DNA of 62,855 nucleotides, the filler included, from Nemertoderma westbladi (lineage: Eukaryota; Animalia; Xenacoelomorpha), in NCBI GenBank assembly GCA_032718475.1. It is 4 parts of 4 records of this genome, joined end to end, with 100 filler letters (N's around TTAATTAATTAA, not from the genome) between each part and the next. Parts side by side here need not be neighbours in the genome. Positions count along the whole stretch, not along the records: positions 41,001 to 58,543 come from JAUCBJ010000378.1; 3 more parts are not named here. One strand, 5' to 3'. Below the pieces are notes generated by a model. The model ran no database searches. It was not told the origin of the DNA and saw only the letters and a program-made list of their open reading frames with translations. How positions within the stretch are numbered: position 1 is the stretch's first letter; every line of letters starts with the position of its first letter. This document shows, one piece after another, positions 21,026 through 58,643 of the stretch. A program made the translations under genes and the position numbers.

Positions 21026-21136
21026 ATGGATGCAGAGATACCTCCTAAAGGTCCTATGGGGGCGTTGAGCTCCGATGTGGATTGGTGTGAACCGAATTAT
21101 CAGATCTTCTCAACTGTTGCCGAATTTTATAATACG
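21026..21136 (+). CDS. ACER: Alkaline ceramidase (ACER1/2-like), exon 1
   Basis: MDAEIPPKGPMGALSSDVDWCEPNYQIFSTVAEFYNT|gtacgt; DWCExNY and EFYNT motifs. Confidence 0.92.
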
Positions 21137-21497
21137 GTACGTTCATTTGTAGGTACCGCTACACGGTGACGGTACCGGTAGTTTTCGTATCGGTAAACGG
21201 ACGTATCCTAAATTCTGCGCGGCGGATTAAGTTCATTATTCAGTTGCTGACGCTCAGTTATTAGGTATTGTTGATGTAGGGTCTGTTTCAGTATTACATT
21301 CTACCGGCAGACCGGTAACAGATACAGTACCGGTATTATTCTATTTCTGGATATACTGATATCAGGATATAGTTCAATGTAGTTGACTACAAACACCAGA
21401 CAACCTCTTGTTAAATTCTTAGGTCTCGGGAATAGACTGAACGATTTTTGTGTATTACAGATTTTTATTGTACTTTGTAACGCTTTGTTTGTTACAG

Positions 21498-21649
21498 GTT
21501 AGCAATGCTTTGTTTATTCTCCTCCCGTTATTATTGATATATCTATTGGTTCCCTACGTTAAGCGAGCAGCCGACCCCACTTCCATTATAATGTGCTCCT
21601 TGTTACTCACCGTCGGGGTTGGGTCTATTTACTTCCATGCGACTTTAAG
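21498..21649 (+). CDS. ACER: Alkaline ceramidase, exon 2
   Basis: ttacag|VSNALFILLP...GVGSIYFHATL AG|gttagt; CREST SxxxH motif. Confidence 0.93.
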
Positions 21650-21682
21650 GTTAGTCAACTAATATAGGTGTATAAGTAAAAA

Positions 21683-22162
21683 GGATACATGACCGAACGT
21701 AATCAGGATCGAATGTAACATAGTTCAGTAGGCCTAGTTATTACGTATCGAACGTAACCGCAATTATGTTACATTTGATCTCATAACTATGTTACATTCG
21801 ATCTACAAATTACTAAGCCCGAATGTAACATTAACATTTAAAGGGGCAGGTTGCAGAGGTGTGTTGGGGGAACCAAAACAGTAAACGAAAGTTAACATAT
21901 GTTACATGATTATGCAAGTTACTTAATTGGGTCTTTGTTTTGTACTCACCAAACTGTTTCTTCCTGTAAATAAACGAAGCATTTCATCGGTTAACTCCTG
22001 AAATCAAAACACATCAGAAATAAATATATGTTACATTCGGGCTTAGTAATTTGTAGATCGAATGTAACATAGATATAGGATCCAATGTAACATAATTGAG
22101 GTTACGTTCGATTCGTAAAAACTATGTTACATTCGATCCTGATTACGTTCGGCCTGTCACCC
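21683..22162. mobile_element. Mutator-like MITE in ACER intron 2
   Basis: ~140-bp imperfect terminal inverted repeats (CCGAACGTAATCAGGATCGAATGTAACATAG...) and a 9-bp TSD AAGTAAAAA (21674-21682 / 22163-22171). Confidence 0.8.
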
Positions 22163-22720
22163 AAGTAAAAATACAACAGTTTGTTTTTGTTAGTATCATA
22201 TTGACCCTAATTATAATTCCAACTGTCGAATAATTGTAGGGGAATCCCTAAAATAATTTGAAGTGAAGTCGTATCTATATTTTATTTCGCATGGCGAGTT
22301 TTACCCTGGATTAGTTGTAAATTTCGCCCGACTTTTCTTTTTTTATGAATACGAGATTATATTCTGACATTTTATCATTTTTGTAGTTTCCATAGATAAG
22401 TTTGTGGATGTTAACAGGCCTGGCCTACCTCTGGAGTCCGGAGTTCTCCGTACTGGCAGATCTACAATATTTAACAAATTGGTTTAAAACCACGAATATT
22501 TATCACTAGTTTACCGGCCAACTTGTATATTTACCATATTTATGTAAATAATATAAATAATCATATATAATTAAGATAAAAATTTGAACTCCTTAATGAA
22601 AAAATGGTAAAAAATACTATTTAATAATAAATTATTAAATATCATTTAATAATATATTACGTAGCGGCACCGGACCCTTTTGTTGACCATTTTTAATATT
22701 ATGAATTTATTGTATTACAG

Positions 22721-29974: not shown

Positions 29975-30546
29975 ATAATAATATGTTTATTATATTCTTT
30001 TACATATTATTTGGTGCTTCTTTTTCATTTCCGTGCCTTCTTCCATTTATGTAGGAAACTTTAATATACATGGCGAGCCACGTAAGTGAGCGAGTAGAGC
30101 TTACGTGTCACTGGCACTGGCAGTGTCTTGACAACTTTGCGCCTAGAACTAATGGGTCGTTGGCCGCATTAGAACACTGTGTCCGCGGTGTAACACATAG
30201 TATAGCTGGTCAGAATAACTTTGCTGCTACGTTTATATTCGTAAAATGATCCTTCCAAGTAGTATTATTGTCGTTTTAATATAAAATAAATTTCAAAGCC
30301 GTTAATTTCAAGTTTCACAATCTTTCGAATGATATTCATACAATTTCGCAATTTGACTATGTCAAAAAACCTTATAATTTTTGGTCCAATTAGCCACTTT
30401 TGGTATTTTCAAATTTCAACGACATCGTTCGATCTTCATACTACTCACAGTGTTACAACTGGTGCTGATGTAGCCAGCAACTAAATGTGACCCATCTAAA
30501 TTCAGAAAAAAAATATCTGCTAGGATCGGAGGATGCAATTTACACC

Positions 30547-33500
30547 GCCAGTCGGCACCACTGATGGGGTCTGGTGCACCGAGACCCAACCAGTCGGCAC
30601 CACTGATGGGGTCTGGTGCACCGAGACCCAGACAGTCGGCACCAGTGATGGGGTCTCGTGCACCGAGACCCAGCCAGTCGGCACCACTGATGGGGTCTGG
30701 TGCACCGAGACCCAGACAGTCGGCACCACTGATGGGGACTGGAGCAACGAGTCCCAGACAGTCGGCAGTTCGGCACCACTGATGGGGACTGGAGCAACGA
30801 GTCCCAGACAGTCGGCACCACTGATGGGGACTGGAGCAACGAGTCCCAGACAGTCGGCACCACTGATGGGGACTGGAGCAGCAACGAGTCCCAGACAGTC
30901 GGCAGTTCGGCACCACTGATGGGGACTGGAGCAACGAGTCCCAGACAGTCGGCAGTTCGGCACCACTGATGGGGACTGGAGCAGCAACGAGTCCCAGACA
31001 GTCGGCAGTTCGGCCCCACTGATGGGGACTGGAGCAACGAGTCCCAGCCAGTCGGCACCACTGATGGGGACTGGAGCAACGAGTCCCAGACAGTCGGCAG
31101 TTCGGCCCCACTGATGGGGACTGGAGCAACGAGTCCCAGACAGTCGGCACCACTGATGGGGACTGGAGCAACGAGTCCCAGACAGTCGGCACCACTGATG
31201 GGGACTGGAGCAACGAGTCCCAGACAGTCGGCACCACTGATGGGGACTGGAGCAACGAGTCCCAGACAGTCGGCAGTTCGGCCCCACTGATGGGAACTGG
31301 AGCAACGAGTCCCAGACAGTCGGCACCACTGATGGGGACTGGAGCAACGAGTCCCAGACAGTCGGCACCACTGATGGGGACTGGAGCAACGAGTCCCAGA
31401 CAGTCGGCACCACTGATGGGGACTGGAGCAACGAGTCCCAGACAGTCGGCACCACTGATGGGGACTGGAGCAACGAGTCCCAGACAGTCGGCACCACTGA
31501 TGGGGACTGGAGCAACGAGCCCCAGACAGTCGGAAGTTCGGCACCACTGATGGGGTCTGGTGCACCGAGACCCAGACAGTCGGCAGTTCGGCACCACTGA
31601 TGGGGACTGGAGCAACGAGACCCAGACAGTCGGCAGTTCGGCACCACTGATGGGGGCTGGAGCAACGAGTCCCAGACAGTCGGCACCACTGATGGGGACT
31701 GGAGCAACGAGTCCCAGACAGTCGGCAGTTCGGCACCACTGATGGGGACTGGAGCAACGAGTCCCAGACAGTCGGCACCACTGATGGGGACTGGAGCAAC
31801 GAGTCCCAGACAGTCGGCAGTTCGGCCCCACTGATGGGGACTGGAGCAGCAACGAGTCCCAGACAGTCGGCAGTTCGGCCCCACTGATGGGGACTGGAGC
31901 AACGAGTCCCAGACAGTCGGCAGTTCGGCCCCACTGATGGGGACTGGAGCAGCAACGAGTCCCAGACAGTCGGCAGTTCGGCCCCACTGATGGGGACTGG
32001 AGCAACGAGTCCCCGACAGTCGGCACCACTGATGGGGACTGGAGCAACGAGTCCCAGACAGTCGGCAGTTCGGCCCCACTGATGGGGACTGGAGCAACGA
32101 GTCCCAGACAGTCGGCACCACTGATGGGGACTGGAGCAACGAGTCCCAGACAGTCGGAAGTTCGGCCCCACTGATGGGGACTGGAGCAGCAACGAGTCCC
32201 AGACAGTCGGCAGTTCGGCCCCACTGATGGGGACTGGAGCAACGAGTCCCAGACAGTCGGCACCACTGATGGGGACTGGAGCAACGAGTCCCAGCCAGTC
32301 GGCACCACTGATGGGGACTGGAGCAACGAGTCCCAGACAGTCGGCAGTTCGGCACCACTGATGGGGACTGGAGCAACGAGTCCCAGCCAGTCGGCACCAC
32401 TGATGGGGACTGGAGCAACGAGTCCCAGACAGTCGGCAGTTCGGCCCCACTGATGGGGACTGGAGCAACGAGTCCCAGACAGTCGGCACCACTGATGGGG
32501 ACTGGAGCAACGAGTCCCAGCCAGTCGGCACCACTGATGGGGACTGGAGCAACGAGTCCCAGACAGTCGGCAGTTCGGCACCACTGATGGGGACTGGAGC
32601 AACGAGTCCCAGCCAGTCGGCACCACTGATGGGGACTGGAGCAACGAGTCCCAGACAGTCGGCACCACTGATGGGGACTGGAGCAGCAACGAGTCCCAGA
32701 CAGTCGGCAGTTCGGCACCACTGATGGGGACTGGAGCAACGAGTCCCAGACAGTCGGCACCACTGATGGGGACTGGAGCAACGAGTCCCAGACCGTCGTC
32801 AGTTCGGCACCACTGATGGGGACTGGAGCAACGAGACCCAGCCAGTCGGCACCACTGATGGGGACTGGAGCAACGATTCCCAGACAGTCGGCAGTTCGGC
32901 ACCACTGATGGGGACTGGAGCAACGAGTCCCAGACAGTCGGCACCACTGATGGGGACTGGAGCAACGAGTCCCAGACAGTCGGCACCACTGATGGGGACT
33001 GGAGCAACGAGTCCCAGACAGTCGGCAGTTCGGCACCACTGATGGGGACTGGAGCAACGAGTCCCAGACAGTCGGCACCACTGATGGGGACTGGAGCAAC
33101 GAGTCCCAGACAGTCGGCACCACTGATGGGGACTGGAGCAGCAACGAGTCCCAGACAGTCGGAAGTTCGGCACCACTGAGGGGGTCTGGTGCACCGAGAC
33201 CCAGCCAGTCGGCACCACTGATGGGGTCTGGTGCACCGGGACCCAGCCAGTCGGCACCACTGATGGGGACTGGCGCAACGAGTCCCAGACAGTCGGCACC
33301 ACTGATGGGGACTGGAGCAACGAGTCCCAGACAGTCGGCACCACTGATGGGGACTGGAGCAGCAACGAGTCCCAGACAGTCGGAAGTTCGGCACCACTGA
33401 GGGGGTCTGGTGCACCGAGACCCAGCCAGTCGGCACCACTGATGGGGTCTGGTGCACCGGGACCCAGCCAGTCGGCACCACTGATGGGGACTGGAGCAAC

Positions 33501-33965
33501 GAGTCCCAGCCAGTCGGCACCACTGATGGGGACTGGAGCAACGAGTCCCAGACAGTCGGCACCACTGATGGGGACTGGAGCAACGAGTCCCAGACAGTCG
33601 GCACCACTGATGGGGTCTGGTGCACCGAGACCCAGCCAGTCGGCACCACTGATGGGGACTGGAGCAACGAGTCCCAGACAGTCGGCGCCACTGATGGGGA
33701 CTGGAGCAACGAGTCCCAGACCGTCGTCAGTTCGGCACCACTGAGGGGGTCTGGTGCACCGAGACCCAGCCAGTCGGCACCACTGATGGGGTCTGGTGCA
33801 CCGGGACCCAGCCAGTCGGCACCACTGATGGGGTCTGGTGCACCGAGACCCAGCCAGTCGGCACCACTGGTTGGTCTGGTGCAACCGAGACCCAGCCAGT
33901 CGGCACCACTGATGATGTCTGGTGCACCGAGACCCAGTCAGTCGGCACCACTGATGGGGTCTGGT
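30547..33965. repeat. GC-rich minisatellite, 42-bp core unit with +3 and +8 variants (~75 copies)
   Basis: CAGTCGGCACCACTGATGGGGACTGGAGCAACGAGTCCCAGA and variant ...GGGTCTGGTGCACCGAGACCC; the 8-bp indels break frame. Confidence 0.95.
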
Positions 33966-35914
33966 CGTGATGCAGTTAGTCGTTGCCAAGCGCTCTCGCT
34001 CGCGGGTGTGTTGGGAGGTATTCGGCGGAGACTACCTTCTCCGCTCCATCTGTCCTCTGCTGAGACCATGAGGAGGCCTAGGGTTCGGCGATGGTGCGGG
34101 ACTGACTGCGTGGCTTCAGTCTTGCTGGGCAGTTCTAACCCATCTCCCAATACAATTAGACTTCTATGCCGGCAGTAAATCGTTTTACATTCCCTAAAAT
34201 TTGACTCAATTTTGTTGTCTATAAATCTATTATTTGTTATTCTTTATCTGTTGAATATAAATATTTAAAATAAAAAAATGTGATCCATCTATGATATTGT
34301 GTTTCACTTGACGTACAGAACCCACAAACGTCTATTTTATTATTGAGTGTAGTGCAATTTAAAGTGCTTTGCATTTGCAGTTTCCGTATATTAGTAGTTA
34401 TTTATAATTTGTTTTAATATAATAAGGTGCGTTAATTATATTTGGTAGCTTTAAAAGAATTTATACATAATAACATTTTTATTAAACTATAGGGTAGTTA
34501 GATGTTGTAGTGTGTGGACAGAGCGGATATCGGTTATAAACTCGATTGATGTGATTTCAGTAAAAAAAAAGCAAATATAGAAATAATCGACATATTTGTT
34601 ACGTGAGTCGGTAAGGCTGATATTTATAATCGGGGATTTTTAATTTTAAAATTGGTTTGGTCGTTTTCTAAGTTCAAATTCCCACACTGGTTGGCATTAA
34701 TATAAAGACACTTCAAATAATATTATCTGGTCTTTATTCCCAAAACAACTTTGCTAACACAGTGAAAACAGATTCACCTTGCGAGACCTCCCATAAATCG
34801 ATATTTCTGTTATAAGTTTTACAGGTAAATTTAACTTTCAGTTACTAGTTTAGTGGGTATAGTTATAAATTTAGAGATCGTTTATATTTTTTTAACATGT
34901 ACTTAACTAAAACGTATTTCAGTAGAGTGCAGGTAACCAACAAGGTTTTTTTTTTCTTAATTAAAACTTTGTTAGGAAGTCGAAAATATCAGTTCCGTTT
35001 CTGGTTGTGCAATATTGCAATCTGTTGAAAGTCTGGAAGTAATGTAGTCGTGCAGTTGTTATGGTCAGTCATGTTTAATATTTTCAATTATTTTAGGTAT
35101 AATAATTTATATTAATTATTGCATTTATTCCAGTATTTTATAAATATAATATTTATAATTGTATTTGTTTCGATAATAAACACATTTATTTATTGACTCT
35201 ACATATTTACTTTTTGCTTAATTTGCTTTAACAGTTTACTATGCAGAACTAATTTGCTCAGTTATTTTTTATACAAGATCCTGATTAGATCAGTTCGAAA
35301 TCTGTAACATCATAAATAGATGCATAATTAATTACTGTGAAAATTGAAAATTTAAATCCAACTCTAAGCTTCACATATTATATTTATTGACAATAATTCC
35401 TTCCATAAATTACAAACATTTAACCAGAAATATTCCGAATATTAATATGATGACAGTATTCCAGTCCATGAAAAGAAATGTAAGCAACAATTATTATTAA
35501 AGTTAAATTGTATACCCCGGCATCATCCATTGCATTACAAGTCAGCGGTATAACGACAACCTGGACTAACTGCTTTGCATTGATTGTATGCAATATAAAC
35601 TGGGTTCTCTGGTTTCCAATGGAACTTTAGTCGGAGCTCGGAGTGAGGATTGATTTTGGAATGTTACGACCATCTATAACGCCTGGCACTTCAGCCTAAA
35701 CAGTTCGACAAAACATTAATGACGGTGTAGTTGTAATTAATTACCCACTCACATTTAATCCAACTTTTAGTAGTTTGTATATGTTTTTTATTTATTTCCT
35801 GTCGGCTTGAATCACTAAGTGTCAATACTATATCATCGGTGATGTTCAAATTCTTCACTTTGATACGAAATGGCTGGAAACCTCATGGTTCAATCCTCAA
35901 TCCTTCGCGGTGAC

Positions 35915-36243: not shown

Positions 36244-36716
36244 CTGTGTTCTCCCAGCGTTCTAGTGATTGTCCTCCAAAGCGTTTTTTCAGCGCTAATG
36301 TCACATGAAAGTGTATCTGTGTACCAGGCTGCCATTTAAATCTATGTAAATTATGATTTTATGTAGTTTAGGTAGGCCTATGGCAATGAATCGTCGATTT
36401 TTTATGATGTCACTAGATACTATTGGAATTATTAAGTATATGGTGGAGTAAATGTCCTTTATTATGTGCCAAGTAAGATAAACCATTGGGGTTCGTTGCA
36501 CAATATAGCCAACTGCTTATCCAATGATTTATTTATTATTCACCAACCAAATTAATTAGTATAATGAAATTCATCATAAGCGCTGTTATTCTATAACTCA
36601 TACACCTTGTTTAATTATTAATAATTTGTTTATAACATGACTCGTTTATATACAAAAAAAATAATTTTCTAAAATAGTTACTAAGATTTATTAACGTGTT
36701 AGAACTGGAATTTGCA

Positions 36717-38879
36717 ATGGGTTGTGTCGGTAGCAACCCCACAGTGCGTGAGTCGAATACGTTCCCTCAATCTCAGGTTCAGTCACAGCAATGTTTATCA
36801 AACTCCGTTCCACAAAGTCCCTCCAGTGAAAACTTCGGAACGCCTCGCCTGTTCGCATCAACAGTCGGGCAACAACTACCAACTCAACCGCCTATTCCAG
36901 TCCATTCGAATGAGACGCCAGTGAAAGTAAATTCAAACGATTTACAAACAAGATGTGAAGGTGACCCAGAATTGATCATTAAACAATTTTCTGAATCGAG
37001 TAATCTGATGGGACCGTTTTTTTATAATTTTGCGACATTCATAAATGACATTTCCGAAAAACAGATATCTATGTGGTATGACACAATAATTAAAAAGGTC
37101 AAGTCATCGATTCAAGACCTAGAAACTATTACTGATTACGCAACACGGGAAGCTGATGATAGAATGCAAGCAATACAATACGCATTCCAAGTCTTACAAA
37201 TTACTGATGGTGAACTCTACACTAAAGTAGCTGATGATATTAGTTCACCATTTGTAAATCTTAACGCACAAATTTTAAAGATAATTAATCCGCTCCATTT
37301 ACTTTCTAGTGATAACTTCGTTGTATATCCTGGTGGAAAATTTGGTTTCCCTAAAGTACCACGTGATCAATGCTCAGTTAAATTGCTCCTTCTGAAGGTG
37401 TATTCCAACTACAAAGCCATTCTATGGAATACCACTGATAAGTCACAAATTCTGTGTCGGGAGCTGCTAAATTCACCATTCCTGACACATTTATTTCATG
37501 AAATTAGCTTACCGGAGATGAGTCCAAAAAATCACCATTGTTATCCCATTACGTATCTCATCAGCGAGTCACTCGGTATTCTTCATAATATCGCCAGACA
37601 CACCGACTGTCGGGCTGTATTTCGCGACAACAACGCCGTCCATATATTGGAACAACTTCTCTCCACTGAGTCGCAATTACTTAAACTTAAGTGCCTCTTA
37701 ATTTTGGGTTATATTCTCGAGGAAGATGAAAACAACAAGTTGCATTCGTCGCCGGAAAACATGAAGTTTCTTCTCGAAATGGTTGGAGATGCGATGGAGA
37801 GCAACGATCATTGTTGTTGCAGGGATGATAACAGGTTCAGTCTCTGTGAACTTCTACAAGGCCTGAACGGAATTATAGTGAACGACGTCAACAAAAGACA
37901 CGTATTCGAAAACAAAGGGATTGAAATCTTTAGCAAGATTATTAAAAACAGCGATGCGTTTAATACCGGAGAACAAATTGAAGCGGCGAAGGGTATTTGG
38001 CTGTTGTCTTTTGTGATTGATGATTTTTTTAAGAAAGAAACAGATTGCGTTGCTTTGTTACAAGATATCAAGGAGACCTCGTTAAGCAGTGATTTGAAGA
38101 AAGAATGCGCCGGAGCTTTATTTTCAATTTTAGGCCCTGAAGACGACGATGAAGACGAGGTCGCTGAGGCTACCAGCGTGGACGTCATGATAAGTTACCA
38201 ATGGGATCACCAGGCGACGATGTTAAAACTGAAGGATTTACTTCAAGAGGCCGGATTTAAAGTTTGGATGGATGTGGATAAGATTAATGAAGATGTATTG
38301 GAGTCTATGGCAGACGCGGTCGAGACCTGCCGTGTCGTCATCATGAGCATATCGCATCGGTACAAGGACAGCAGGTATTGTAGAACCGAGGCTAAATACG
38401 CCTATCAGCTGGACAAACCTGTGATACCGGTGCTCGTGGAGAAGGGGTACAGAGCCAGCGGTTGGCTGGGAGCCATGGTGTCCACCTCTCTCTACTATCA
38501 TCTGTACGACGAGGCACTAATAGAACAGGAATGGCCTAAAATACAGGAACGTGTGAGAAAGTATTGCGGTGAAATAGTGTGTGGCAATGATACTAATACT
38601 AAATATGTGGGGAAAGCCCCTTTGCAGCGAGCAATTTCAATGACAACAGTGGCAAATTGGTCAGCAGATGACGTTCGCAAGTGGTTGCTTGATAACAATT
38701 TAGAAGAAATATCTGATAAGTTTGGTAACTGTAATGGGGAACTTCTTATGGAACTGTCTAGGATCGGTAATGAGTCAGTGGTTGCTTTGCATAGTCGTAT
38801 AGAAGCATACACGGGCTGTAGTGATTTATTTTTTTTGTTACGATTTAGCGCTGCATTGAGCAAGCTTTCGAGCCGCTAA
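36717..38879 (+). CDS. ARM-like repeat / TIR (TIR_2-type) / SAM-like domain protein, 720 aa, single coding exon
   Basis: First ATG at 36717 (MGCVGSN). Helical ARM-like region (ESLGILHNIA, EAAKGIWLLSF, ECAGALFSI); TIR box DVMISYQW...VWMDVD...MADAVE...SRYCRTEAKYA...PVIPV; SAM-like WSADDVRKWL. Confidence 0.88.
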   Translation: MGCVGSNPTVRESNTFPQSQVQSQQCLSNSVPQSPSSENFGTPRLFASTVGQQLPTQPPIPVHSNETPVKVNSNDLQTRCEGDPELIIKQFSESSNLMGPFFYNFATFINDISEKQISMWYDTIIKKVKSSIQDLETITDYATREADDRMQAIQYAFQVLQITDGELYTKVADDISSPFVNLNAQILKIINPLHLLSSDNFVVYPGGKFGFPKVPRDQCSVKLLLLKVYSNYKAILWNTTDKSQILCRELLNSPFLTHLFHEISLPEMSPKNHHCYPITYLISESLGILHNIARHTDCRAVFRDNNAVHILEQLLSTESQLLKLKCLLILGYILEEDENNKLHSSPENMKFLLEMVGDAMESNDHCCCRDDNRFSLCELLQGLNGIIVNDVNKRHVFENKGIEIFSKIIKNSDAFNTGEQIEAAKGIWLLSFVIDDFFKKETDCVALLQDIKETSLSSDLKKECAGALFSILGPEDDDEDEVAEATSVDVMISYQWDHQATMLKLKDLLQEAGFKVWMDVDKINEDVLESMADAVETCRVVIMSISHRYKDSRYCRTEAKYAYQLDKPVIPVLVEKGYRASGWLGAMVSTSLYYHLYDEALIEQEWPKIQERVRKYCGEIVCGNDTNTKYVGKAPLQRAISMTTVANWSADDVRKWLLDNNLEEISDKFGNCNGELLMELSRIGNESVVALHSRIEAYTGCSDLFFLLRFSAALSKLSSR

Positions 38880-41470: not shown

Positions 41471-42263
41471 ATTATGAAGAACTGACAGCAAATAGCAGTA
41501 TAAAACAACAACTGAACAGTTAGGTACATCGGTACATCAGTACCGGTATATCAGCAGTGAGATATTTACGGAGTGATATTTATCAGATGTGTCGTTTGAA
41601 TATATCAATCAGTTAAAGGATATATGCCCTTTATAATTAAACCTACCAGTGTACGACTAAAAAGCAGTACAGCACAAAATATTTATAAGCCGTTCTTTCT
41701 TTGGCTCAAGACTGAATGAAAACACTGCACATAGGCATTGCGTCATTTCTCGGAAATTCTCTGTACAAGGAGCCACAAAAACGCTCTCATTGGCTGACTG
41801 AGCTGAGAGACGCCGTAGAACAAAGGAAATCAACACGTATGAATGTCAGCTGTTAACCGTAGTCATAGTAACTACTGTTCAAGAGTAGCTATCACTCCTT
41901 TGCGTCACAAATTGCCATAGAATCATAAAATATACCTTTCACAATACACATACGGAGGAAATAAGTCTTAGATCCTCTAAAAACACCGATACAGTAATAA
42001 TACGGTCTCTTACACTTATTAAATCAACTACAGAGTATTTTAATGTAAAAGATAATAAAAATAACGGGGCAATTCAGCAAAGGCTTTTACATCGCCCCTG
42101 ATGAGGAGGGTCGGGGGAGGGGAGGTAGGCCGAGTGGAGAGTGAGGGATTGGAGAGATAGTGGACCTGTGTACCGGTAGTGGAAATTAGAGGTTTCAGGG
42201 TTTTGGTGATTTATCTTGTTGATATTGAAGAGATTAAATACAAAGATTGTTTATTGACAGACT

Positions 42264-42873
42264 AAACGATGCCTTTTCGGTAACTCAGTCTCAAGCCTAC
42301 CAATTATTTAAAACACGCATTGTGAAACCGGGCGAATCTTACGATGTTTATTTAGTGGAATTAAGGAAGTTGTTATTGCTTTCTGGTGTAACCGACGTCG
42401 ATTCAGCTACGCCTATTCTTCGGGGACAGTTTTTGGCAGGTCTACCAAGTAATGTAACCCAACATCTAACAGCTGCCATTGAAGCTGAGGGAGTTGAACT
42501 GCAACTTTCGGAGTTAGTGGCGCGTGCTAGAAGAGTATCCGGTATGTTAAAGGAAAAAGATGCTGGTAATGGTACCTACGATCGCGTTGTGGGTGCCATC
42601 GAACGGCAGGGGAATGTTGGTGTACGAGGGAATGGTCCAATCCAAGCTGTCTGCTGGAATTGCAGTGAAGTGGGACAAATTGCCCGACAGTGCCCCCGGG
42701 GTCGGAATCGAGGAAGTGGAGCACGCGGTGGGATACAATGTTACGGATGCCGAGGGTTTGGTCACACGCAGCGTGAATGCCCAACTGTCCAACGGAAGTT
42801 GGGTTCGGAAAACTTTTCCAGGGGGGTGTATTCGCAATCCTCGGTCACCCCCCGCGCTTCCTTCCAACCGTAA
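42264..42873 (+). pseudogene. gag: Gypsy gag (5'-truncated) with two zinc knuckles
   Basis: PGESYDVYLVELRKL, QFLAGLP, CWNCSEVGQIARQC (H lost) and CYGCRGFGHTQREC. Confidence 0.82.
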
Positions 42874-45800
42874 CATGTCAGTTAACATTTCCTTGTAATA
42901 AAGGAGATATTTTTACGTTTACAGCCGGGTTGGACACGTTTTGTACAGAGTCTTTAATAACTAAGAAGTTGTTGCTTAACAATTGTATTAACTTTCGGTG
43001 TTCAGAATTTAATAATACTCTTGGAACATTAGGGGATAGTGTAGCCGTACATGGTAGTGTGTGTGCTCATATCAATGGTATAGATGGAACTGATACAAGT
43101 GTCGAAATATGTTTGAAGGTTGTTGACACTGAGTGTTTGTTTGGTGTGGATATATTATTGGGGGCAGATTGTCTAACTATTTTTGGAGAGTTAAATGTAG
43201 TGTATGACCGTGACATGGGGGTGTGTAATGTAAAATTGCCATTGATGCATGAGTGCGTACATGGTACCCAAACTAAGCTGCTTGGGGCCCTTAATAATGA
43301 GCGTAGCAAGCCATTGTCGCTGCTGCAATGTCTGATAAGTCTGGTGGCAGTTGTGAACAATCATTACTTAATGTCAATGCTAAAGAGTGGTACCCAAAAT
43401 GTCCATTGCAGACGGTATATAACCATAGTTTGTTGTCACAAACTAATCGGTTAAGAAAATTTATTCGTGTAGAACAATTTTTGAATGGTGATATATGTTT
43501 GCATGATAAAGATTTTAATGTAACATGGCATAACATCGATAAGCGGTGGGTTCTAGAGTGGAAGTGGATATCTGGAATTCCACCTGTTGGTCATATAGGT
43601 TCCGGCCTAGGTGAATATAACATTAAAATTTCTGATAGACAGCTAGACCTATTTAGTGGTGAAGTGAATAAGTGGGTTACCAATGGTTGGATGGTTAAGC
43701 ATGACCCTCAGGTTCATGGTGAGCTTAAAGGAGTACTACCCCTAATGCCAGTTCTACAGGAACATAAACCGACAACTCCCGTACGGCCTGTGCTAGATTA
43801 TATCCTATTAAACAAGTTATTGTGTGCTGATCCCGGTCGGCAAGTGGCGGTTTGTAGCGAGTCAGTTAGAACATGGCGTAAAATGGGTAACAATACCAAA
43901 CTTTTAGACCTATCTAAGGCTTACCTACAGGTTCATGTAGTTCCATATCAGACTGTGTATCAGGGGGTGATTTGGAATGATGAAGTGTATATTATAAATC
44001 GAATGGGATACGGGCTCGAAATCGCTCATAAAGTTTTACATGCGATAGTTTCATTTATTTTTGACACCGGTGGTTACACCATGGAACAGGTTGATAAGTA
44101 TGTGGATGAAATCTATGTCAATGAAGATTTAATAAGTGTAACTGAGGTTCGTGCGTTACTAGTGCGGTTTGGTTTAGAAAGTAAGGACCCTGAAGGTCCC
44201 CAAACAATGAGTCTTCTGGGAATGAATATTTACCAAGATCCTTGTGGTGTGCTACAGTGGACAAGGAAAGATAAAGATACGTTAGCATTGCCTAGTAGGT
44301 CAACCAAACGAGAAATATTTTCCTGGTGTGGGAAATTAGTGGCCCATTACCCTGTTGTTAGTTATATTAGAGTTTGCTGTGGGTGGTTAAAACGTCTCTG
44401 CGACAATCATTGGGATGATCCAGCTAATTATGCTGTGAAAGAACTTGCTATTGATTTGTATAACATGGTCAGGGATAACAATACAGTGAGTGGAGTTTGG
44501 TCTGTGCAGAACACTATCCATAGTAAAGTAGAGTTGTGGGTGGATGCCAGTGATATAGCCAAAGGTGTTGTACTTGAAATTGATGGTAGTGTTGTTGAGG
44601 ACGCATCCTGGTTACGTAAGGCAAAGGATTTTTCGCATATCAATGTAGCTGAGTTGGACGCATTATTGGAGGGCATTAATCTCCTTGTAAAGTGGAATTT
44701 GGTTTGCAAACGGTGTCTAATATATACGGACTCTGAGGTAGTGAATAATTGAATGCAACAGATGTTGAATAACACTTGCAGGTACCACATTGGCGGAATG
44801 ACAGAAGCAGTAGTTAGACGCCGATTGCAAATAATAGAGGAAGTCATTGACAGTTATGATCTAGAATTGACAGTTAGCAAAGTATCTTCCAAACTGAATA
44901 AGGCAGATAAGTTAACGCGGATTCCAGAGCGTTGGCATAAGATCACTAAGCAAGTAACATTGTGTGGGGGGGTCTTTGCAGCTCAAGTTGTTGAAAGTGT
45001 TCCTATATCAAGAATCCTTGAACAACAGTATTTAGATACTGTACTAGCGGAAGTGCGAAATACTATTCTGAACGGCAGCTGGGGCGATATGTGTAGTGAT
45101 AACCCATATAGAAACTTGGACAAGCAACTGTCCATAGATCAGAATACAAAGTTATTGGTACGGGAAGTGAAAGTACCTCCACATGACATTGTTGTAGTTC
45201 CTGTTGTTCCGGAATCTTTACAATTAAGCATAATATCGCATTGTCATTCATCAAGTGGGCATGCGAGTTGGGGATTGACTAGGGAGAAACTCAGAAGGGT
45301 TTGTTATTTCACATGTATGTCTGCCAAGTGTCAACTGTTTATTAGCAATTGTAAATCGTGTTCTCTCGCGAGTGTCAAACGTCATATCAGTAGTTTCCCT
45401 TCAGACCGTACAGTCATTGCAGATAAGCCCTGGCAAGTTGTTTACGTAGACACTCTCAAAGCTGATAATCGGAATATCTTAGTAATGGTCGATTTTTTGA
45501 CTAAGTGGATAGAAGTAGAGATGCTGAAATCAATGAAAGCTGGTGATGTTGCTGATGTGTTTCTAGACAAATGCCTTTTATGGGGACCGCCTGAAGTCGT
45601 AAGGAGTGATAAAGGGAGTGAGTTTGTCAATGGAATTATTGAGAGTATCTGGAAAGTTTTTAAAGTTAAAGAAATACATGGCGCAGTAGGTAATCCCCGA
45701 AATCAAGGGGCTGTAGAACGTTGTCATGGAACCATTTTGATAATATTACGTAAAATTATCAGTGATGAATCTGACGATTAGTCAGATTAAGTGATTAAGT

Positions 45801-46483
45801 GGGCCCTTCATGCTTACAGGAACCGTCCAACCACCACCACGGGTATTTCCCCAATGAGAGCGTTTTGTGGCTGGGAGGGTCAACAGGTAAATTGCGGTTC
45901 TATGAATAGTTACAGTTGTAACACTTAGATTGGTCGTCAGTTAGTTGAGGGTGCAAAGATAACTGATTATGTAGAGCAAAAACTGTCGAAACTTGATTAC
46001 GTGCCTAACAACGAAGATGTACGACAGTTTGAAGTCGGTACTCGTGTATATTGGCATAAGGGTATGAGGCTTGGTAAGAAGGATACACCATGGATGGATG
46101 GGTGGAGAGTTAGTGCTGTGCTGGGGCCGTCGAATTATGAGATTTCACATGATTCACCTAATCGTAGAGCAAAGGTGGTGAATGTCGACGCCATCAAAGA
46201 GGCAGTAGGAAGTGGTAATGTGTTGCATCACGGTAGTGCTCGTGGTAGTGATCCACCAGCGGGAACTAGGGTCGTCGAGGTAGTCACTTTGAATGGAGAG
46301 TTAGAATTAGGTGACTTAGTTTTACCAAACATAAGTAACAGTCAGATATCTTGCACTCAGCCTGAAGTATCTACTGTTACAACAGATGTCGCGAATGAGT
46401 CCTCGAGTAGTGATAATGATTCACAAGTGGTAACAAAGAGTGGACGTGTTATAAAACCACCCAGTTATTATGGATTCACGTAA
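42870..46483 (+). pseudogene. pol: Gypsy pol (protease, RT, RNase H, integrase), interrupted
   Basis: LDTFCTESLI, RPVLDY, LDLSKAYLQV, RMGYGL, YVDEI, WVDAS...INVAELDA...YTDS, H-H-C-C zinc finger, VYVD / RSDKGSEF / GAVERCHG. Frameshift ~43330-43450; stops at 44750 and 45779. Confidence 0.88.
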
Positions 46484-47703: not shown

Positions 47704-48841
47704 GGGGGGGGGGGGGGGGGTAGCGCATTTTCAGACCAAAAAGTCGAATTTTCGAAACATATCCTATCTGATGGAGAATTTCATGCTGAATCCAAATATG
47801 GAAACCGTTTTCCAATATCTTGCTTAGTTTTTGAGATATCTGGGATAGAAGATACTGGCTCCGATGTATCGCGATATCGGTAAAGGCGATGAAGTTTGGG
47901 GTTTGCATTCAATTTCTGAATATTTCAGTGCTCAGTGGTGCTAATTGGATGTCTCCACGAGAAAGAGCACAAAATTTTAATTGAGAAGATATTTTATTAT
48001 GATTATTGGACCTACTGATCAGTTTATAAGACAACTTCAAGTCTCCGGAATGAAGACGGGACTCGAATAAGCGACTCTGCGGTCTTTGCGGGATTACACG
48101 GAATAGACTTATCGGTCATCGGAGATCTTCAAAATGAATAATCTCCAGTTCTATTGGTCGTACGAAGTTCGTTTTGGGCTCATTCGAAAGCTCTTTTCTT
48201 AGAGAACAAAGTTACCATTTGGTTTGGCAAACTCTTGAAAGCTGCCTGAGCAATCATAACTTGAACAAAATTTGCAAGGCATATTTTACCCAAATTCATG
48301 TTATGTTGCTTTACAACCATTTTGTCTTAAATCAAATGGTAACTTTGTTCTCTAAGAAAAGAGCTTTCGAATGAGCCTAAAACGAACTTCGTACGACCAC
48401 TAGAACTGGAGATTATACATTTTGAAGATCTCCGATGACCAATAAGTCTATTCCGTGTAATCCCTTAAAGACCGTAGAGTCGCTTATTCGAGTCCCGTCT
48501 TCATTCTGGAGACTTGAAGTTATCTTATAAACTGATCAGTAGGTCCAATAATCATAAAAAAATACCTTCTCAATTAAAATTTTGTGCTCTTTCTCGTGGA
48601 GACATCCAATTGGCACCACTGAGCACATAAATATGCAGAAATTGAATGCAAACCCCAAACTTCATCGCCTTTACCGATATCGCGATATATCGGAGCCAGT
48701 ATCTTCTATCCCAGATATCTCGAAAACTAAGCAAGATATCGGAAAACGGTTTCCATATTTGGATTCAGCATGAAATTCTGCATCAGATAGGATATGTTTC
48801 AAAAATTCGACTTTTTGGTCCGAAAATGCGCTACCCCCCCC
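47704..48841. mobile_element. Near-palindromic non-autonomous DNA transposon with TTAA TSD (Kolobok-like)
   Basis: TTAA|GGGG...TAGCGCATTTTC ... GAAAATGCGCTACCCCCCCC|TTAA; ~520-bp inverted arms around a ~100-bp spacer; RR..YY termini. Confidence 0.82.
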
Positions 48842-50416: not shown

Positions 50417-50995
50417 TGTGACGGGATCGATCCGAAGATCCCGATATTTCCGTTATCCTACCTACGCGTCCCCGCCGTGTCTGTATGAAAAGAGTTCCGG
50501 AGTTGTTGACTGATCGGTATATATATAATATAGGGTATAATAGTATAAGCACAGTAGAAGCTGATATAATGATAAAGTGAATGAATACCGGTAATGTATT
50601 GAACGGTGATGGTGGCAGTGGACGGAGACGGTGATAAGAGTCTCGGTACTACCCTAACTAACTGACTTACTAAAGTGAATGGGATAACATGATGACTGGT
50701 AATAATATATATTGCACGGTTGGCCATATTGCGTTACTCAGTCGATGCTTGCCCCCCATTGGCTGATAACCTAGTTTTTGCCCTCTCACCTCCCTTGGAG
50801 TGTTTCCCCTTGCTGCTGTTGTTCCCTCTCTCTCAGGGGTGTAACCCCTGACCCCTATTGTGTGTGTGTTCTCTTGGGGCCTGTTGTCCCCGTTTATTGG
50901 GGTGACACGAGGTTGATTGGTAATCAACCTTGTGCTCCCAATATTGCTTAAAGCCTACTTTGTGGGGCTGGCTAGCGGAATTGAATACGCTAACA
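50417..50995 (-). repeat. Putative 3' LTR (~579 bp)
   Basis: Begins TGTTA directly after the polypurine tract (plus strand TAACA|CTCCCCCCCA); ends CGTCACA at a sharp switch to AT-rich flank. The second LTR is not visible. Confidence 0.6.
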
Positions 50996-51693
50996 CTCCC
51001 CCCCAATGCTATCTTCCCGGTGAGAAGATAGCATCCACCTCTAGTGCGCTACAATTCCACTGGATCCCGATCTAGTATCGTGGAACTATTTTTTTCGGAG
51101 CCGGCTTTCCAGGCCGCTCCCTATGGGTATGATATCGCTACCCTGTTAACCTGGCGTCCCATGTCGGGCCGATCGTGCACTCCTCTCACACAATTTTTGT
51201 TTCCCCAACACTTTCGCCACTAACTCCGCTCCACTTTCACCCTGACCCTCCTCTACTTCTCCTCACTCTCGCTCTAACCCTCGGACCTCCTTGTCCCTCA
51301 CTCTGCTTCTCACTTCTCCCCCCCACACTTGAATTGCGCCCACACTCTCTCCACACTCCGCACTATTACTCCGTTACTCAACCGCCATTCTCACTTACTC
51401 GTTTCCGACGAGTCTCACGCCCCTCCTGCGCCGTCGCACTCAAGAAGAATGATGTCGTCCATGTCCTGTCTGTGGTTGCAGTGCCATAGTCAACTAGTCC
51501 CCAGTCCCAGTAGCTAATTGGAAAAGGTTATATGGCTATAGTACTTACTTTGAATATATATTTGTTACTAGACTACTGATTACTACGTACGTATATACAA
51601 ATTGCACCTTTTCAATTATTTAAGTTATTTGAATTTGTACTTAAGAGTTCGCACGTCTCCCGTGGTGCCTTCCAGGCATGCCACGTCGAAGTC

Positions 51694-54285
51694 TTAGTTC
51701 GTTCCACCTGGCTTTGGGAACCACCTCAACTCTTTCCCTCTGTCGTCCTCCTCCCTTGGTCGTTTCTTGGCCGTTGCCGCTCCCTTGGCTTTATCTCCCT
51801 TCAGGCCCCTGACCTTCGCCGTCACCTCTCTACTTATCCCGGTCGTCGACTCCTTGGGCGCTGGTGTTATCAGTTCCCGGTATCGCTTCGCGGGTGGCCC
51901 CTCCGAGTGGCCCTGTTGTCTCCCCCTGGTGGCGTCCCATAGGATCACTTTCATTGCCCGCGGCACGTGCTCTGCCAAGAAATCTCTGAACTCCCCTCGG
52001 TTCTGTGGCATCCACCTGTCCAGATACCTCTGCGTATTTATCACTCCGGCATACGACGCCGCCGTTGCTACCTCCTGGTAGGTAAATGGAAGTCTTCGCT
52101 TGATAATCTCCAAGTGAGCCTCCTGATTAATACTGAAGAAGCCCCACCTGAACTCCTGGGCCTTCATACGTTGCCGTGTCATGGAACCAACGTCGGCCCA
52201 CTCCTCGAAGATTCTGAACTTCTCTTCGTCGTCCATCCGGTCGCACTGGCGTCCGTAGTGCCCCCGAAAGTTACACTTCGAACATCGGTTGTGCAACCGT
52301 GGACACGCTCCCATCCTGTGGCTCGACTCGCGGCAGTAGAGACAACTAGTCCCTTTCTGGAATCGGTACAGACAGCTCCTTTCCTGGTGGGTTTGTCTCC
52401 CACTGTAGTCACAACCGAGCACCAATGTCTCCCGCCCCACGTCGTCTTTCGTCCCAAGCGATATCCGCGGTCTGTGGAGTTGCTGGTAAGCGAACTTTTG
52501 GACATTAGCATCCCTGTCCACATCGATCTCCTCGCCCCTCCCGGGCATCGTCTCCCCGAATCCTACCCGTGGTGCCGTCCCCGGTTGCTCGCCCAACCTG
52601 ATGGTGCTCCCCGCGAAATCCATCGCCGGCTCCTCATGCATCCAGGCCCGCTTGCCGGGTCTATCCCAGAAGGCTCTCGCCCCACTGGCCGTCACCACCC
52701 TTCCGCCAACCCAGTCCGTGTCTGAGTGGCCTATCCTTGTGATGGGCGGCATCTCTCCGAACTCGTCGTCATCCTCATCCTCCTCTGGGAGTGGCTCCAA
52801 CCCCGGTATCCCAGCGGACCCACTGTGTCCCTTCCCACCTTGGCTCTCGCCCGTGGCTCTCCACCCCTCTAGCTCTCCTAGCCTCCTTAGCGGGTGATAG
52901 CCCTCAGCGCCCGCTTTTATGGGCGTCGCCTGCGATCCCGATGTCGACTGTTTCGGTGATCCCACCGTCCATCCTAGTTCTCGCCCTAGAGACTCCCCCG
53001 AACTCCCTGATGATGTCCAACGAAGTTCGTCTAAGGCCGCCTGTTCCTCGAAGCCGTAGCTCTGCGCCCTAGCTTCCTCCTCCCTTTCTTCTGCCTCTCT
53101 CCTTTCTTGTCTAGCGATTTCTTCCAATCGCTTCGCTTCTCATCTATCCGCCTCTAGCTGCTCCCATCTCTGACATGGCGTATCTAAGTCCCTGTCTACC
53201 AGATGTCGGTAATTATAGTACACCGACTCGCCTTTCATCCCCGGGTGGTCTACCAGACCCTCGAAAGCCATCTTAAAGGCTCTTCTGTAGCTCAGGGGTG
53301 ACCCCGATAGCAGGAATGCCGTTGGTTCCTTCCCAATGACGACGGTCATGAATAGGTTTAGCAAACCCATCATTATCCAGTCCTCCTGCAGGATATATCA
53401 CTTCTGATATACCTTTATCGCTCCTCTCCGGAATTGATACACCTCTTGTTTCCCTGGCCTCGCTCCCCACTTCAGCGAGTTCGCTAACTTTGCTCCGTAC
53501 TCTTCTCTGAACTTCCCCCAGTCCATTGGTTTGTGACACACGAGCCCCAATAGCTGGCCCATCGCCACCGCTCCACAATGGCCTGCGTTCTCCACTAGTC
53601 CCAACCCATCTGGTGCTGTCATAGCCATGAAGACCGTCTGCATGTCCAGAAGATTGGGGGTGTCCGGACCGATGATTCTCTCCGCATCGTCGCGAATCGC
53701 CGATCCCACCTTTGTCGTCGACTTCTCTCTCACTAGGACTTGCACTGCCTTCGGCAACCGGTTCAACTTCGGCCCATCCTTCTTCCCATACGTTCCCAGA
53801 TCGAACAGGAAAATATACCCATTTGGCGGGGCCAAATGTAGGAGTATGGTTCTGGCCGACCCCGCCGATCTTCTCCTCGAACCTTCCTCGTCTTCCACGG
53901 TTCCTTCATCGTCTAGGATCATGTATCCTCCCCTGCTGACGGACTCTACGAACCTCTTCCAATCTTTCTTCGGTGACTCTCTCGCGTACTTCGGAATCCC
54001 GAACTTTGCCTCGTCTCCTTTCACCACGTAGTGGAAATGCTCGAAGATCGCATTGTCCAGCGACGGCGTCTTGTAGGTCCCGACCAGCCGCTGTTCGTGC
54101 ACTTCCCTGAAATGGTCTTGCAGCGCTCGCGCTTTGTGACCCTTCTCCAGCCGCTCGTAGTATCCCCTCGTCTTCACTTCCGGATGCCTCTTGGTGAAAT
54201 CCACCTGTATCTCCTTTCCTCCTAGCTCCGCCTTTCTCTTTCGCACAAGTTTGCCTGCCATCTCAAACTCTCCCCGATCGCTCAC
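51694..54285 (-). pseudogene. Extra retroelement ORF: DEDDy/WRN-like 3'-5' exonuclease + coiled coil + zinc knuckles, with two in-frame TGA stops
   Basis: ORFs 53398-54285, 53140-53373 and 51694-53127 share one frame. Motifs MILDDEG, LLHLA..FLFDL, LPKAV, KVGSAIRDDA, LLDMQ, Q.*YILQED; CLYCRESSHRMGAC and CSKCNFRGHYGRQC. Confidence 0.65.
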
Positions 54286-54758
54286 CCGTTGGGTGGTGCC
54301 TTGCCAAGGCGCAATAGGATGAGTGATAGGTTAGGATGGTTTATTTAGTTCGAAAGTGGCCTATCTCTCCCTGAATTGTTAAGTTATCGCCTATTTACAC
54401 TACTTAATTCATAAAACGTTAAATTGTACCCTAAATTGTAAATTTGTCCTTTACTTTAATTATGTTCCAGAATTTTCTTACTACTGTTACCATAATTTGT
54501 TAATTTTCTAGCCCTATTCTATTTTTAATATATTAATTTAATTCAATCCTACTAATGTGCTACTACTTACTATTGCCAATGGATTATTCTATTTCATAAT
54601 CCACCTTCTGGCCTACTCTGTGGGTTTGTGCAGTACAACAGTATACGTCGCGTGGCCTACACGATTTATCCAGCTGTACTCATATGCCCCCCTCTCGCTA
54701 CTCACTACTAACTAATATCTATACTATATATATCCTTCTACCACTATCTCTTACTAGC

Positions 54759-55364
54759 CGGTACTACGTACCCTCTTACTAACCTCTAACACTAACTCCT
54801 TCTAACCGGTACTATGTACCCCCTTACTAACCTCTAACACTAACTCCTACTGACCGGTACTATGTACCCTCTTACTAACCTCTAACACTAACTCCTAACC
54901 GGTACTACGTACCCCCTTACTAACCTCTAACTCTAACTCCTACTAGCCGGTACTACGTACCCTCTTACTAACCTCTAACTCTAACTCCTACTAGCCGGTA
55001 CTACGTACCCTCTTACTAACCTCTAACTCTAACTCCTACTAGCCGGTACTACGTACCCTCTTACTAACCTCTAACTCTAACTCCTACTAGCTGGTACTAC
55101 GTACCCTCTTACTAACCCCTAACTCTCCTAACTAACGGTACTACGTACCCTCTTACTACTCTAACTCTCCTAACTAACGGTACTACATACACTCTTACTA
55201 CTCTAACTCCTCTAACTAATGGTACTACGTACCCTCTTACTACTCTAACTCTCCTAACTAACGGTACTATGTACCCTCTTACTACTCTAACTCTCTTAAC
55301 TAACGGTACTACGTACCCTCTTACTACTTCTAACTCTCCTAACTAACGGTACTACGTACCCTCT
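54759..55364. repeat. ~40-48-bp tandem repeat (~14 copies) inside the LTR element
   Basis: CGGTACTACGTACCCTCTTACTAACCTCTAACTCT... units. Confidence 0.9.
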
Positions 55365-55501: not shown

Positions 55502-58489
55502 CTAAGGTGCTCCCTCCAAGAGGCAGTTCTCCCACTGCCCCCCTGTAGGACCTCTAACTCTTCGCCCCGCTCTCCTTGTCAATTCCAACTCTCTTGGAAT
55601 CCTACCCTTTCCTCTTGGAAGACCTACCCTTTTTCCTGGCTGTAAATTTGGAAAGTGCTGCCTATTCTCTATATCTCTGATCTCCTCGTGGTCGTCCCTT
55701 GGCGGCAAAGTGCCACCCTTCAACTTGTCGTTCGGTGGTATAATGCCGCCCCTGTTTTCATCCTTAATCTTAGATGCCATCTCTGCTGGCCTCCCCCTTA
55801 ATATGTGTGCTGGCATTAAAGGCCTCGACGACCCCCGTTTGTCCTTCGGCATGCACGGTGTCTGCCCATATAATGCCCCCTCGCACTCTGTCAGTCCCAC
55901 GTGCGTATGCAACACGCCTCCTACTCTCCTGACTCCTTTATTATGTCCACCCATGGGCCTCTCTGCCCCTGGTCCAATCCTCTCACATCCTCTCCCTTTC
56001 CATCCTGTCTTCTTACTCGACCTCCCCCTTGTTGGTATGCCTCTCAACCGGACCGGTGTCTCTTCCGGACACTCCTCTGAACACTCCTCCGGACACTCCT
56101 CTGGACTATTGTCCTCCTGACACTCCGCCGGACACTCCTCCGGTTTGTCCTCCGGACATCTCGCTGTCCGCTCCTCTCCATCTCCATACTGATACTTGCT
56201 GGGACCATTGTTCCAATCCATTGTCTCTAAATCTTCTACTTCCAAGCCATTCTCCTCCGCCCACTCTCTTGGTGTTCTCTCTCTAGGTGCTTCCACTTCT
56301 AGCTGTCTCCCCCTATCGCCCGTATCTGGCCTCTCCTCTACCTTCTCAACAGTCCCTGGCACCATGCACCCTGAAGTCTCGGTTACGCTGAATGGTATAT
56401 TGGTTCTGATTGGGCCGGTTAGCGTCCACCCAAATGGTGTTAATATCGCCACTGGGTCACACTGCCTGTCTTCGCCGAAGACCGTTTGCATTCTCTCGTG
56501 GGTCATCGGGCAGTCCATTCCTACTATGATGGATACCTTCCTAACGTCCACCTCTGGGATTGAGAAATCAATACTGTCCAGGAATCTATATTGTTCGACC
56601 TCGATGTTGGTTGGCCGCCTGGCATTGATATTTATCGACTCTATCACCTGGATGGGGTCGATGCTCGCCCCATAGTCGCATCCCGGTGCTATTGCTGCTA
56701 TCGCGCACCGTCCGGTCCTCATCTCCAGGACCTCATCTTTGCTGGAGATGGTTGTTACCGCCATTCTACTTGGCCTCGTTCTCAATCCTCTCTCTTCGGC
56801 CACCCAATCCTCAACTAAGGTGAAGGCTGCACCACTGTCGACCAGCATCAGTGTGGTCACTGATCGATTGCCTTCTCCAATCACTCGCACTGGTACTACC
56901 CCAAGTAGTACCGTTCCTCTCTTCTTTGCTCCCACGGTGCTCGTTGCCATTGTCTGACCTTTATTTTGACCGAACTTGATTTGCGTTTCCTTGCATTGGT
57001 TAGCCCTATGTCCACTCATCACACATCGCGAACAGATTTAATTTCTCCTCGCGTATTCTACCTGATCTTCTCTGGGTAGCGCCTGCCAGTACCTGCAGTT
57101 CATGGTCTGATGAAGTGAATTTGTATGTAATTGGCATTTGCTCTTTGGGTTGTAGCCATCCTTATAAAGTGCGTTGCATATCGCACCTATATTTGTACCA
57201 AAGTCCCTACTATTCTTATTGTTTGGGTTCGGCCTACTGGGCATGCTGGGGTTATGTTTATTTGTGTTGTTATTTTTCCCCTGTCCGCTCCATGATGTGG
57301 TCTTACCCCCGGCTACCTGTGGACTAGCAGTCCCCTGCGTCGCTGCGTACGGCAGTGATTGCCTGAGCTTTGGTAATGCGTTCGACGCGTTGTGTTCTGG
57401 TTTCGGTCTATGGTAATCGGTCTTGGGTCCCTTTCCCAGGCTATCCTCGCTATAGACTGGGTCCATTATTAGTTCAGCTTCATAATTTAAGAAGCTCGAC
57501 ATCTCTTCTAAACCCGGTTCCGCGCCCTTCTTATCTCGAGTGGTGAAAGCGATTTTTCTCCACTTATTGCACAGCCAAATGGTAGTGCCTGCGCTATCGT
57601 AGTGATGTTGTTAGATGCGTTGAGTTCGTATGGCGCGTCCAGTGTCTTTAGTATGATTAGCGCCTTCTCAACCTTGTTCGCAAACGTCTTTATGCTAACG
57701 GGATTATCCTGTAGGCCACCCGATGTTATGCCTCTCAGGGTTTGCCGAATGATCTTGGCCAGGTGCCCGTATTCCCTGTCCAGTGCCCGCCATGCCATCG
57801 TGAAGCCGCCCTCGATGCCCTGGTATTGCCTCACGATGTCGTATGCTGGGCCTCCTGTGTATACTTGCAAATATTTTAGGCACTCCGCCTGCGTCAGGTT
57901 CTTTGTTAGTATTTCATTACTATACATGCGCCGAAACTGTAGATATTCTTCCGGCCTACTCCCATCGAATTTAAATGGTTCCACAGGTGGTAACTCGATC
58001 CTGGTTTTCAACGCATCGATTAATGTGGCCATCCCCATTGCTTGCGCTTCTAATGGGTTTGATGGATATTGTATAGATTCTCCTTTTGGGTGCGGTCCAT
58101 TCGTCCTGTTTGCCGTTTTCTTTTGACTTGGATATATCATTGGGGGTAGCGGCCCCCTCCATATTTCGGTATCGCATGATCTATTCTCGTCCAAAGGGTT
58201 CGATGTCCTTGCTCCTATTGGGTTTATTGTCGATATTGTGATGGGGGAATGTCACCCTGCCCCCCCCCCCCCCCCCCACCGGTATATTTGGTACTGGGGT
58301 TGATGTTAATATATTGGGGCCCATGCACCTATCCGCAATAATCCCCCCCTCCCCTGGGTATATGTTATGTCCTTGCATGCTGTAGTCATACTGTTGTGCT
58401 GGTACCGGTATAGGCCTATCAACTTCTGGCCTACCTGCCGGTATGTACTCCGCGACTTCCGGGTTTAATCCCGTCATCCGCGCTATCAT
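55502..58489 (-). pseudogene. gag: BEL/Pao gag (DUF1759-like) + zinc knuckles + aspartic protease, frameshifted, no RT
   Basis: FDGSRPEEYLQF, LKYLQVYTGGPA, AWRALDREYG; CQLH...H...C and CSRC...GH...C; LVDSGAAFTLV; TPFGWTLTGP, followed by a low-complexity CPEE tail. Confidence 0.8.
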
Positions 58490-58543: not shown

Positions 58544-58643
58544 NNNNNNNNNNNNNNNNNNNNNNNNNNNNNNNNNNNNNNNNNNNNTTAATTAATTAAN
58601 NNNNNNNNNNNNNNNNNNNNNNNNNNNNNNNNNNNNNNNNNNN
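58544..58643. other. Assembly/contig spacer
   Basis: N44-TTAATTAATTAA-N44. Confidence 0.95.

Follow-up and report, generated by a model that had tools for sequence, protein, structure and literature searches.

Does an exonuclease-like gene lying between the gag-protease region and the LTR of a retroelement belong to that element, or is it a host fragment that came to rest there, and what could its product do for a retrotransposon? The question is raised by a locus in the genome of Nemertoderma westbladi (assembly GCA_032718475.1), studied here in a window of 62,855 nt, i.e., the whole stretch of DNA that was analyzed, in which the element lies in the part derived from JAUCBJ010000378.1. A preliminary description of this DNA had proposed an LTR retroelement in which a DEDDy 3'-5' exonuclease of WRN/EXD/Mut-7 type, fused to zinc knuckles, occupies the position that env has in some elements. 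The analysis reported here indicates that the ORF very probably represents an accessory gene of BEL elements with a DEDDy plus knuckle architecture. The ORF of this particular copy is a decayed version of a BEL/Pao accessory gene that is carried after pol.

The BEL/Pao element and its accessory frame

The features of the element are collected in Table 1. Its assignment to BEL/Pao is given by a DUF1759 gag, knuckles, and a BEL-type aspartic protease which matches the BEL polyprotein of a related metagenomic locus, L001 (E 5e-8), while the layout of polypurine tract and 3' LTR is the same in loci L001, L003, L004, and L005. The Pfam scan between the protease and the accessory ORF detected no RT, RNase H, or integrase, and none of the pol features (RT, Peptidase_A17/RNase H, integrase, DUF5641) was found in this copy, which is a non-autonomous derivative of a BEL/Pao element. 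At the place where pol would be expected, the post-protease tail (55505-56398, minus strand) consists of 298 open low-complexity codons (P 3e-7 by composition), and other copies show length variants in this tail. No second LTR was found within the window, where the 5' side of the element is cut by an assembly gap (58544-58643), and Rfam gave no matches in the window at the gathering threshold. A perfect 14-bp hairpin (51004-51034, minus strand) directly precedes the polypurine tract and might serve as a binding site; its role as a conserved cis element was not supported, with z < -2 in only two of six elements.

Table 1. Features of the N. westbladi BEL/Pao copy, in window coordinates
Feature	Position	Strand	Basis or remark
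BEL/Pao gag, DUF1759 (E 2.7e-10)	57038..58251	(-)	Pfam; split over frames in this copy
Gag end (knuckle), BEL-type aspartic protease (~56399-56950), open low-complexity tail	55502..57037	(-)	Pfam, ORF scan
48-nt tandem array, 13.8 copies	54737..55364		Spacer between gag-protease and accessory ORF
Candidate branch point, pyrimidine tract, AG acceptor	54300..54334	(-)	Putative, from sequence
Accessory ORF, DEDDy exonuclease + zinc-knuckle module	51694..54285	(-)	Stops at 53398-53400 and 53140-53142
DnaQ/DEDDy exonuclease domain, residues ~80-348	53242..54048	(-)	D125-x-E127, D200, Y297-x3-E301
Long E/R-rich helix, residues 384-422	53020..53136	(-)	Predicted model
Acidic linker, low-confidence, probably disordered, without conservation among relatives	52498..53019	(-)	Alignment, model
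Conserved Cys/His module	51916..52434	(-)	Degenerate knuckle + two CX2CX4HX4C, then FExxADxG..T..R..WGF helical part
Strict CX2CX4HX4C knuckles	52303-52344, 52243-52284	(-)	Pattern match
Polypurine tract	50996..51005	(-)	Followed by TGT at 50995
3' LTR	50417..50995	(-)	Start TGT at 50995 seen; end probably near 50417

As had been proposed, three ORFs join into one frame interrupted by two single stops, giving a protein of 863 residues in which the stops, read as X, fall at codons 296 and 382, and this frame lies between the DUF1759 gag plus aspartic protease and the purine tract with its TGT. Two stops in 863 codons compare with 37.4 expected from base composition (P(<=2) = 2e-14), the remaining two minus frames over the same interval containing 48 and 19 stops. 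The first in-frame ATG is codon 9 (54261). The CTAAC at 54334-54330 and the AG at 54301-54300, which had been put forward as splice signals, are present as described, and when the element's 846 sense-strand AGs are ordered by the pyrimidine content upstream of them, this AG ranks first. In L003 a TTTTAG stands directly before an in-frame ATG and falls outside the top eight of that locus by the same score, and L001 has no strong acceptor before its ORF by the same pyrimidine scoring. These signals would be compatible with a spliced subgenomic mRNA.

The window also carries a second decayed LTR-type element (42238-46483, plus strand) with zf-CCHC, DUF7047 (E 8e-18), and integrase, in which the five ORFs scanned gave no RT match, as well as a reverse transcriptase fragment, probably LINE (783-1739, minus strand; RVT_1 E 9e-19). 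A 34-bp tandem array extends from 2614 to ~12000 (at least 211 overlapping matches), a 513-nt inverted repeat, 96% complementary with a 103-nt spacer, is found at 47713-48841, and a GC-rich region at 30416-34031 (minus strand), where each of the three minus frames contains long ORFs and the longest has no Pfam match, is probably a repeat. An uninterrupted 733-codon ORF (36678-38879, plus strand) encodes ARM-like repeats, TIR_2 (E 1.8e-20), and SAM, which we take to be a SARM1-like domain set.

Fold and active site of the encoded protein

The exonuclease is invisible to searches that start from a single protein: Pfam and PDB sequence searches with the N. westbladi ORF protein alone gave no exonuclease match, the exonuclease domain of L001 alone likewise gave none by sequence search, and relatives were therefore needed to detect the fold. 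Word-index homolog searches returned nothing for residues 40-400 and three hits for the family alignment; among longer proteins they returned none, which is weak evidence. A single-sequence structure model was discarded (pLDDT 33). A full HMMER scan yielded 73 distant relatives, all of them via the C-terminal Cys/His module, of which 61 carry the double-knuckle pattern and 27 have at least 500 residues. Twenty-four of these 27 also align over the N-terminal region, a count which is circular in that the 24 are in the profile, and the other three (P0025, P0063, and P0071) had no exonuclease-profile score and were left out of the tree. The knuckle tree is a quick tree with little support, and Atlas leads for the knuckle module of a relative were only generic zf-CCHC (<0.9).

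The 31-row family profile matches EXD2 (E 3e-13), WRN (5e-4), and Egalitarian (7e-3), and it matches Trypanosoma brucei RNase D over both domains. The suggested fusion of exonuclease and knuckles is supported. When the N. westbladi protein was left out and 28 relatives were realigned, the profile gave its residues 106-322 a score of 73.8 bits, whereas the best shuffle reached 5.5 (1000 shuffles, 489 reported; domain bounds from an alignment including the ORF protein). The alignment-based model, mostly at pLDDT 70-90 across both domains, aligns with the apPol exonuclease (Z 14.6, 3.9 Å, 190 aligned), Nibbler (Z 14.2, 3.2 Å, 199 aligned), WRN (Z 13.7, 3.6 Å, 179 aligned), RNase D (Z 12.9), and EXD1 (Z 12.6). 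With many members matched at Z 12-14.6 over 170-210 residues, and with Foldseek and the profile in agreement, the protein belongs to the DnaQ-like DEDD superfamily, so that the fold on which the preliminary description hinged was recovered by profile as well as by model.

The highest structural matches include Nibbler, EXD1, RICE1, and Egalitarian, with which PolA, RNase D, and diDNase are tied; the DnaQ/DEDDy fold is settled, but because of these ties the subgroup is not. The earlier WRN/EXD/Mut-7 label is favored by the profile, which prefers EXD2, but the fold scores are tied with RNase D and PolA. A structure search of BFVD returned generic viral DEDD exonucleases and PolA, and three viral contig scans gave no confirmed relatives. 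PF01612 matched two of 37 relatives, both below the cut-off, and Pfam HRDC was found neither in the ORF protein nor in the 37 relatives, noting that Pfam likewise missed the nuclease; the structural alignments to Rrp6 and RNase D end at the nuclease domain.

All motifs previously read from the translation are present, i.e., ILDDEG (D125, E127), KVGSAIRDDA (D200), LLDMQ, and YILQED (Y297), and D125, E127, and D200 align with the family columns for the ExoI D-x-E and the ExoII D. The ExoIII motif does lie just past the first stop with its tyrosine, Y297, in place, but its acid is Glu301 (Y-x3-E) in place of Asp, and not the D that follows E301. Similarly, two strict CX2CX4HX4C knuckles (at C648 and C668) occur as proposed, but together with one degenerate knuckle, and all lie within a larger conserved module. 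The ExoIII Glu is common to the ORF protein, P0008, P0030, and P0006. Since the ORF protein groups, on a long branch, with the Glu-type rows P0008 and P0030 at 99/95 support, this residue was likely inherited rather than produced by decay; a literature search returned nothing on the activity of an ExoIII Glu variant.

Across 30 rows (26 relatives, three locus ORFs, and the N. westbladi protein, two rows being near-identical) ten active sites are canonical DEDDy and five carry an ExoIII Glu, with 14 rows degenerate and one truncated. One relative, P0002, combines a degenerate nuclease with a duplicated knuckle module. Because 14 of the 30 rows have lost catalytic residues while fold and knuckles were kept, RNA binding is likely the core job of the family and trimming optional, in a set of relatives which, having been recruited by the knuckle module, is biased toward knuckles outlasting catalytic residues.

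Related loci and sister copies

The metagenome scan confirmed five loci out of 352 pattern matches, whereas an earlier scan with the window's own knuckle module had given none out of 75. L001 and L003 contain a complete BEL gag-pol (Peptidase_A17, DUF5641, RT, integrase) followed directly by the exonuclease-knuckle ORF, a purine tract, and TGT. In L004 (2-5857) BEL pol shares a single frame of 1952 codons with a catalytically degenerate exonuclease and the knuckle module, the pol features being present except for an rve match. L005 shows the end of the knuckle ORF, a purine tract, an LTR, a primer site, and a DUF1759 gag-protease, and L002 is too short to show context. The accessory gene therefore directly follows BEL/Pao pol in three of the five fetched loci and adjoins an LTR and a BEL gag in a fourth; none of the five falls in the Glu clade of the N. 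westbladi protein itself. L001, L003, and L004 branch in three separate regions of the family tree, which suggests that the association with BEL elements is old. This BEL/Pao context in four of five loci argues for an old accessory gene and not a stray host fragment: its proposed status as cargo of BEL/Pao LTR elements is upheld by the same position in related loci, and its linkage to LTR and gag recurs outside this copy.

Sister copies were sought in four DNA runs of one organism which contain the stretch (three studies, two runs from one sample). In three of these runs contigs cover all 30 bins, from the LTR through gag, protease, and the ORF, and 12,105-22,625 contigs were matched per run, so that the family is very abundant; no contig spans the whole element, and contigs alone do not prove the linkage of LTR, gag, and ORF. 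Inside each stop codon 97-100% of the summed contig depth differs from this copy, hence both stops are nearly private to it. Over 591 bases of the nuclease domain, 28 variable sites lie in the third codon position, 11 in the first, and one in the second (P 2.4e-6, for the 40 listed of 70), with no indels among the variable sites listed. This third-position excess among sister copies is as expected under purifying selection on the ORF frame. The signal may come from pol-bearing relatives, the contigs being short and none spanning the element.

Possible roles and comparison with known systems

We favor, with a probability of roughly one half, a reading in which the protein binds RNA of the element itself and, in members with an intact active site, trims RNA 3' ends, by analogy with T. 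brucei RNase D. Its translation would proceed from the putative spliced subgenomic RNA, whereas the pol-fused form would be released by the element's protease; the zinc knuckles would hold single-stranded RNA and pass it on to the nuclease, as in the trypanosome enzyme, and an intact active site would then shorten the 3' end. The benefit may lie mainly in cis, where the genomic RNA particle would be tidied, protected, or routed, and the retention of the gene beside gag in a pol-less element fits such a benefit if this layout is typical of the family. In the available part of PMC9181182 the knuckles of T. brucei RNase D are described as passing RNA to the nuclease and as required for activity; they are termed N-terminal there, whereas our profile search places them after the nuclease. 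The exonuclease domain of Egalitarian is described as binding RNA stem-loops with its catalytic residues dispensable (PMC13186709, in part).

A doubtful alternative is that the protein suppresses silencing, by binding or trimming piRNAs, siRNAs, or their precursors or by acting as a decoy for Nibbler/Mut-7/EXD1-type factors, and so shields the element. The high fold scores of Nibbler, EXD1, RICE1, and Egalitarian would agree with this, as would the abundance of the family, the catalytically dead members (compatible with a decoy), and the weak suppressor activity reported for retrotransposon-borne helicases (available text of PMC6338049); but the fold matches carry no pathway information because PolA, RNase D, and diDNase are tied with them. 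Strong purifying selection, and not fast change, was observed; a suppressor acting in trans would be a shared good and might be weakly selected in a non-autonomous element; and the bdelloid DEDDy ORF3s are covered by small RNAs with no clear tracking of copy number in the accessible portion of PMC5408684. The broader form of the same reading, that BEL/Pao elements across many invertebrates carry a long-standing mimic of small-RNA trimming enzymes (a Nibbler/Mut-7/EXD1 fold with knuckles, in active, Glu-variant, dead, and pol-fused forms) that disarms piRNA/siRNA silencing, is speculative and a shade more doubtful still.

A role of the nuclease on DNA in the course of reverse transcription, whether as proofreading or as trimming of the 3' ends of cDNA prior to integration, is improbable. 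PolA-type exonucleases and WRN are equally good matches, and the pol fusion in L004 means that the accessory domain would be packaged with RT and integrase, but 14 of the 30 rows lack catalytic residues, the pol-fused L004 among them, and the present element has no pol. Largely refuted, and very improbable, is the view that the ORF does nothing for the retrotransposon and is either a fragment of a host gene captured once or a nested element of other origin. This copy is indeed broken and pol-less, with its 5' LTR and target duplication outside view, but the shared position in four of five loci, the selection among copies, and the contig cover in three runs all stand against it.

The preferred reading, an RNA-binding accessory protein with optional trimming, can be set beside several known systems. 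EXD2 (the best profile match), the WRN exonuclease, Nibbler/Mut-7, EXD1, and Egalitarian share fold and motif spacing with it but only 10-17% structural identity; their other domains were undetected here, and the present gene is borne by a mobile element. T. brucei RNase D (PDB 7C42, 7C45), which combines a DEDDy domain with several CCHC knuckles, ranked second in Foldseek and was the top Atlas lead (0.89) for a relative; it is a cellular mitochondrial enzyme with no long linker and 17% identity, and is likely an analogue in layout. The DEDDy-bearing clades of rotifers are gypsy-type, whereas the host lineage here is BEL/Pao. DEDDy ORF3s are described in the bdelloid LTR elements Juno and Vesta and in Athena/Terminon, with a DEED motif and unproven function (PMC5408684, PMC6431247, both in part), and are mentioned again in PMC6338049 (in part). 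Like the present gene, these exonuclease ORFs take the place of env in an LTR element and lack env features; the motif is DEED there and DEDD, DEDE, or degenerate here, and, compared by description in the available text, they have only a Cys-His-Cys motif in two families, without a multi-knuckle module or pol fusion. The env-like third ORFs of BEL/Pao (Roo F-type, mosquito gB-like) resemble the present gene as extra ORFs, but encode fusion glycoproteins and not a nuclease fold, and glycoproteins are the only BEL/Pao third ORFs mentioned in the accessible part of PMC13524379.

In the literature outside Repbase and subscription journals no report of DEDDy cargo in BEL/Pao was found, and the only published DEDDy cargo of LTR elements that was found is that of bdelloid rotifers. 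The kind as such is known from these (PMC5408684, in part). The BEL host, the knuckle fusion, and the pol fusion appear new, as does the mix of active-site states. The N. westbladi copy suggests that a pol-less element can keep such an accessory gene. Compared with the bdelloid ORFs, this is a conserved, divergent family that Pfam misses and that belongs to another superfamily. Its natural variants (active-site, dead, and pol-fused), together with its unbroken natural members (e.g., L001), make the role of retrotransposon exonucleases testable in vitro and in silencing reporters.
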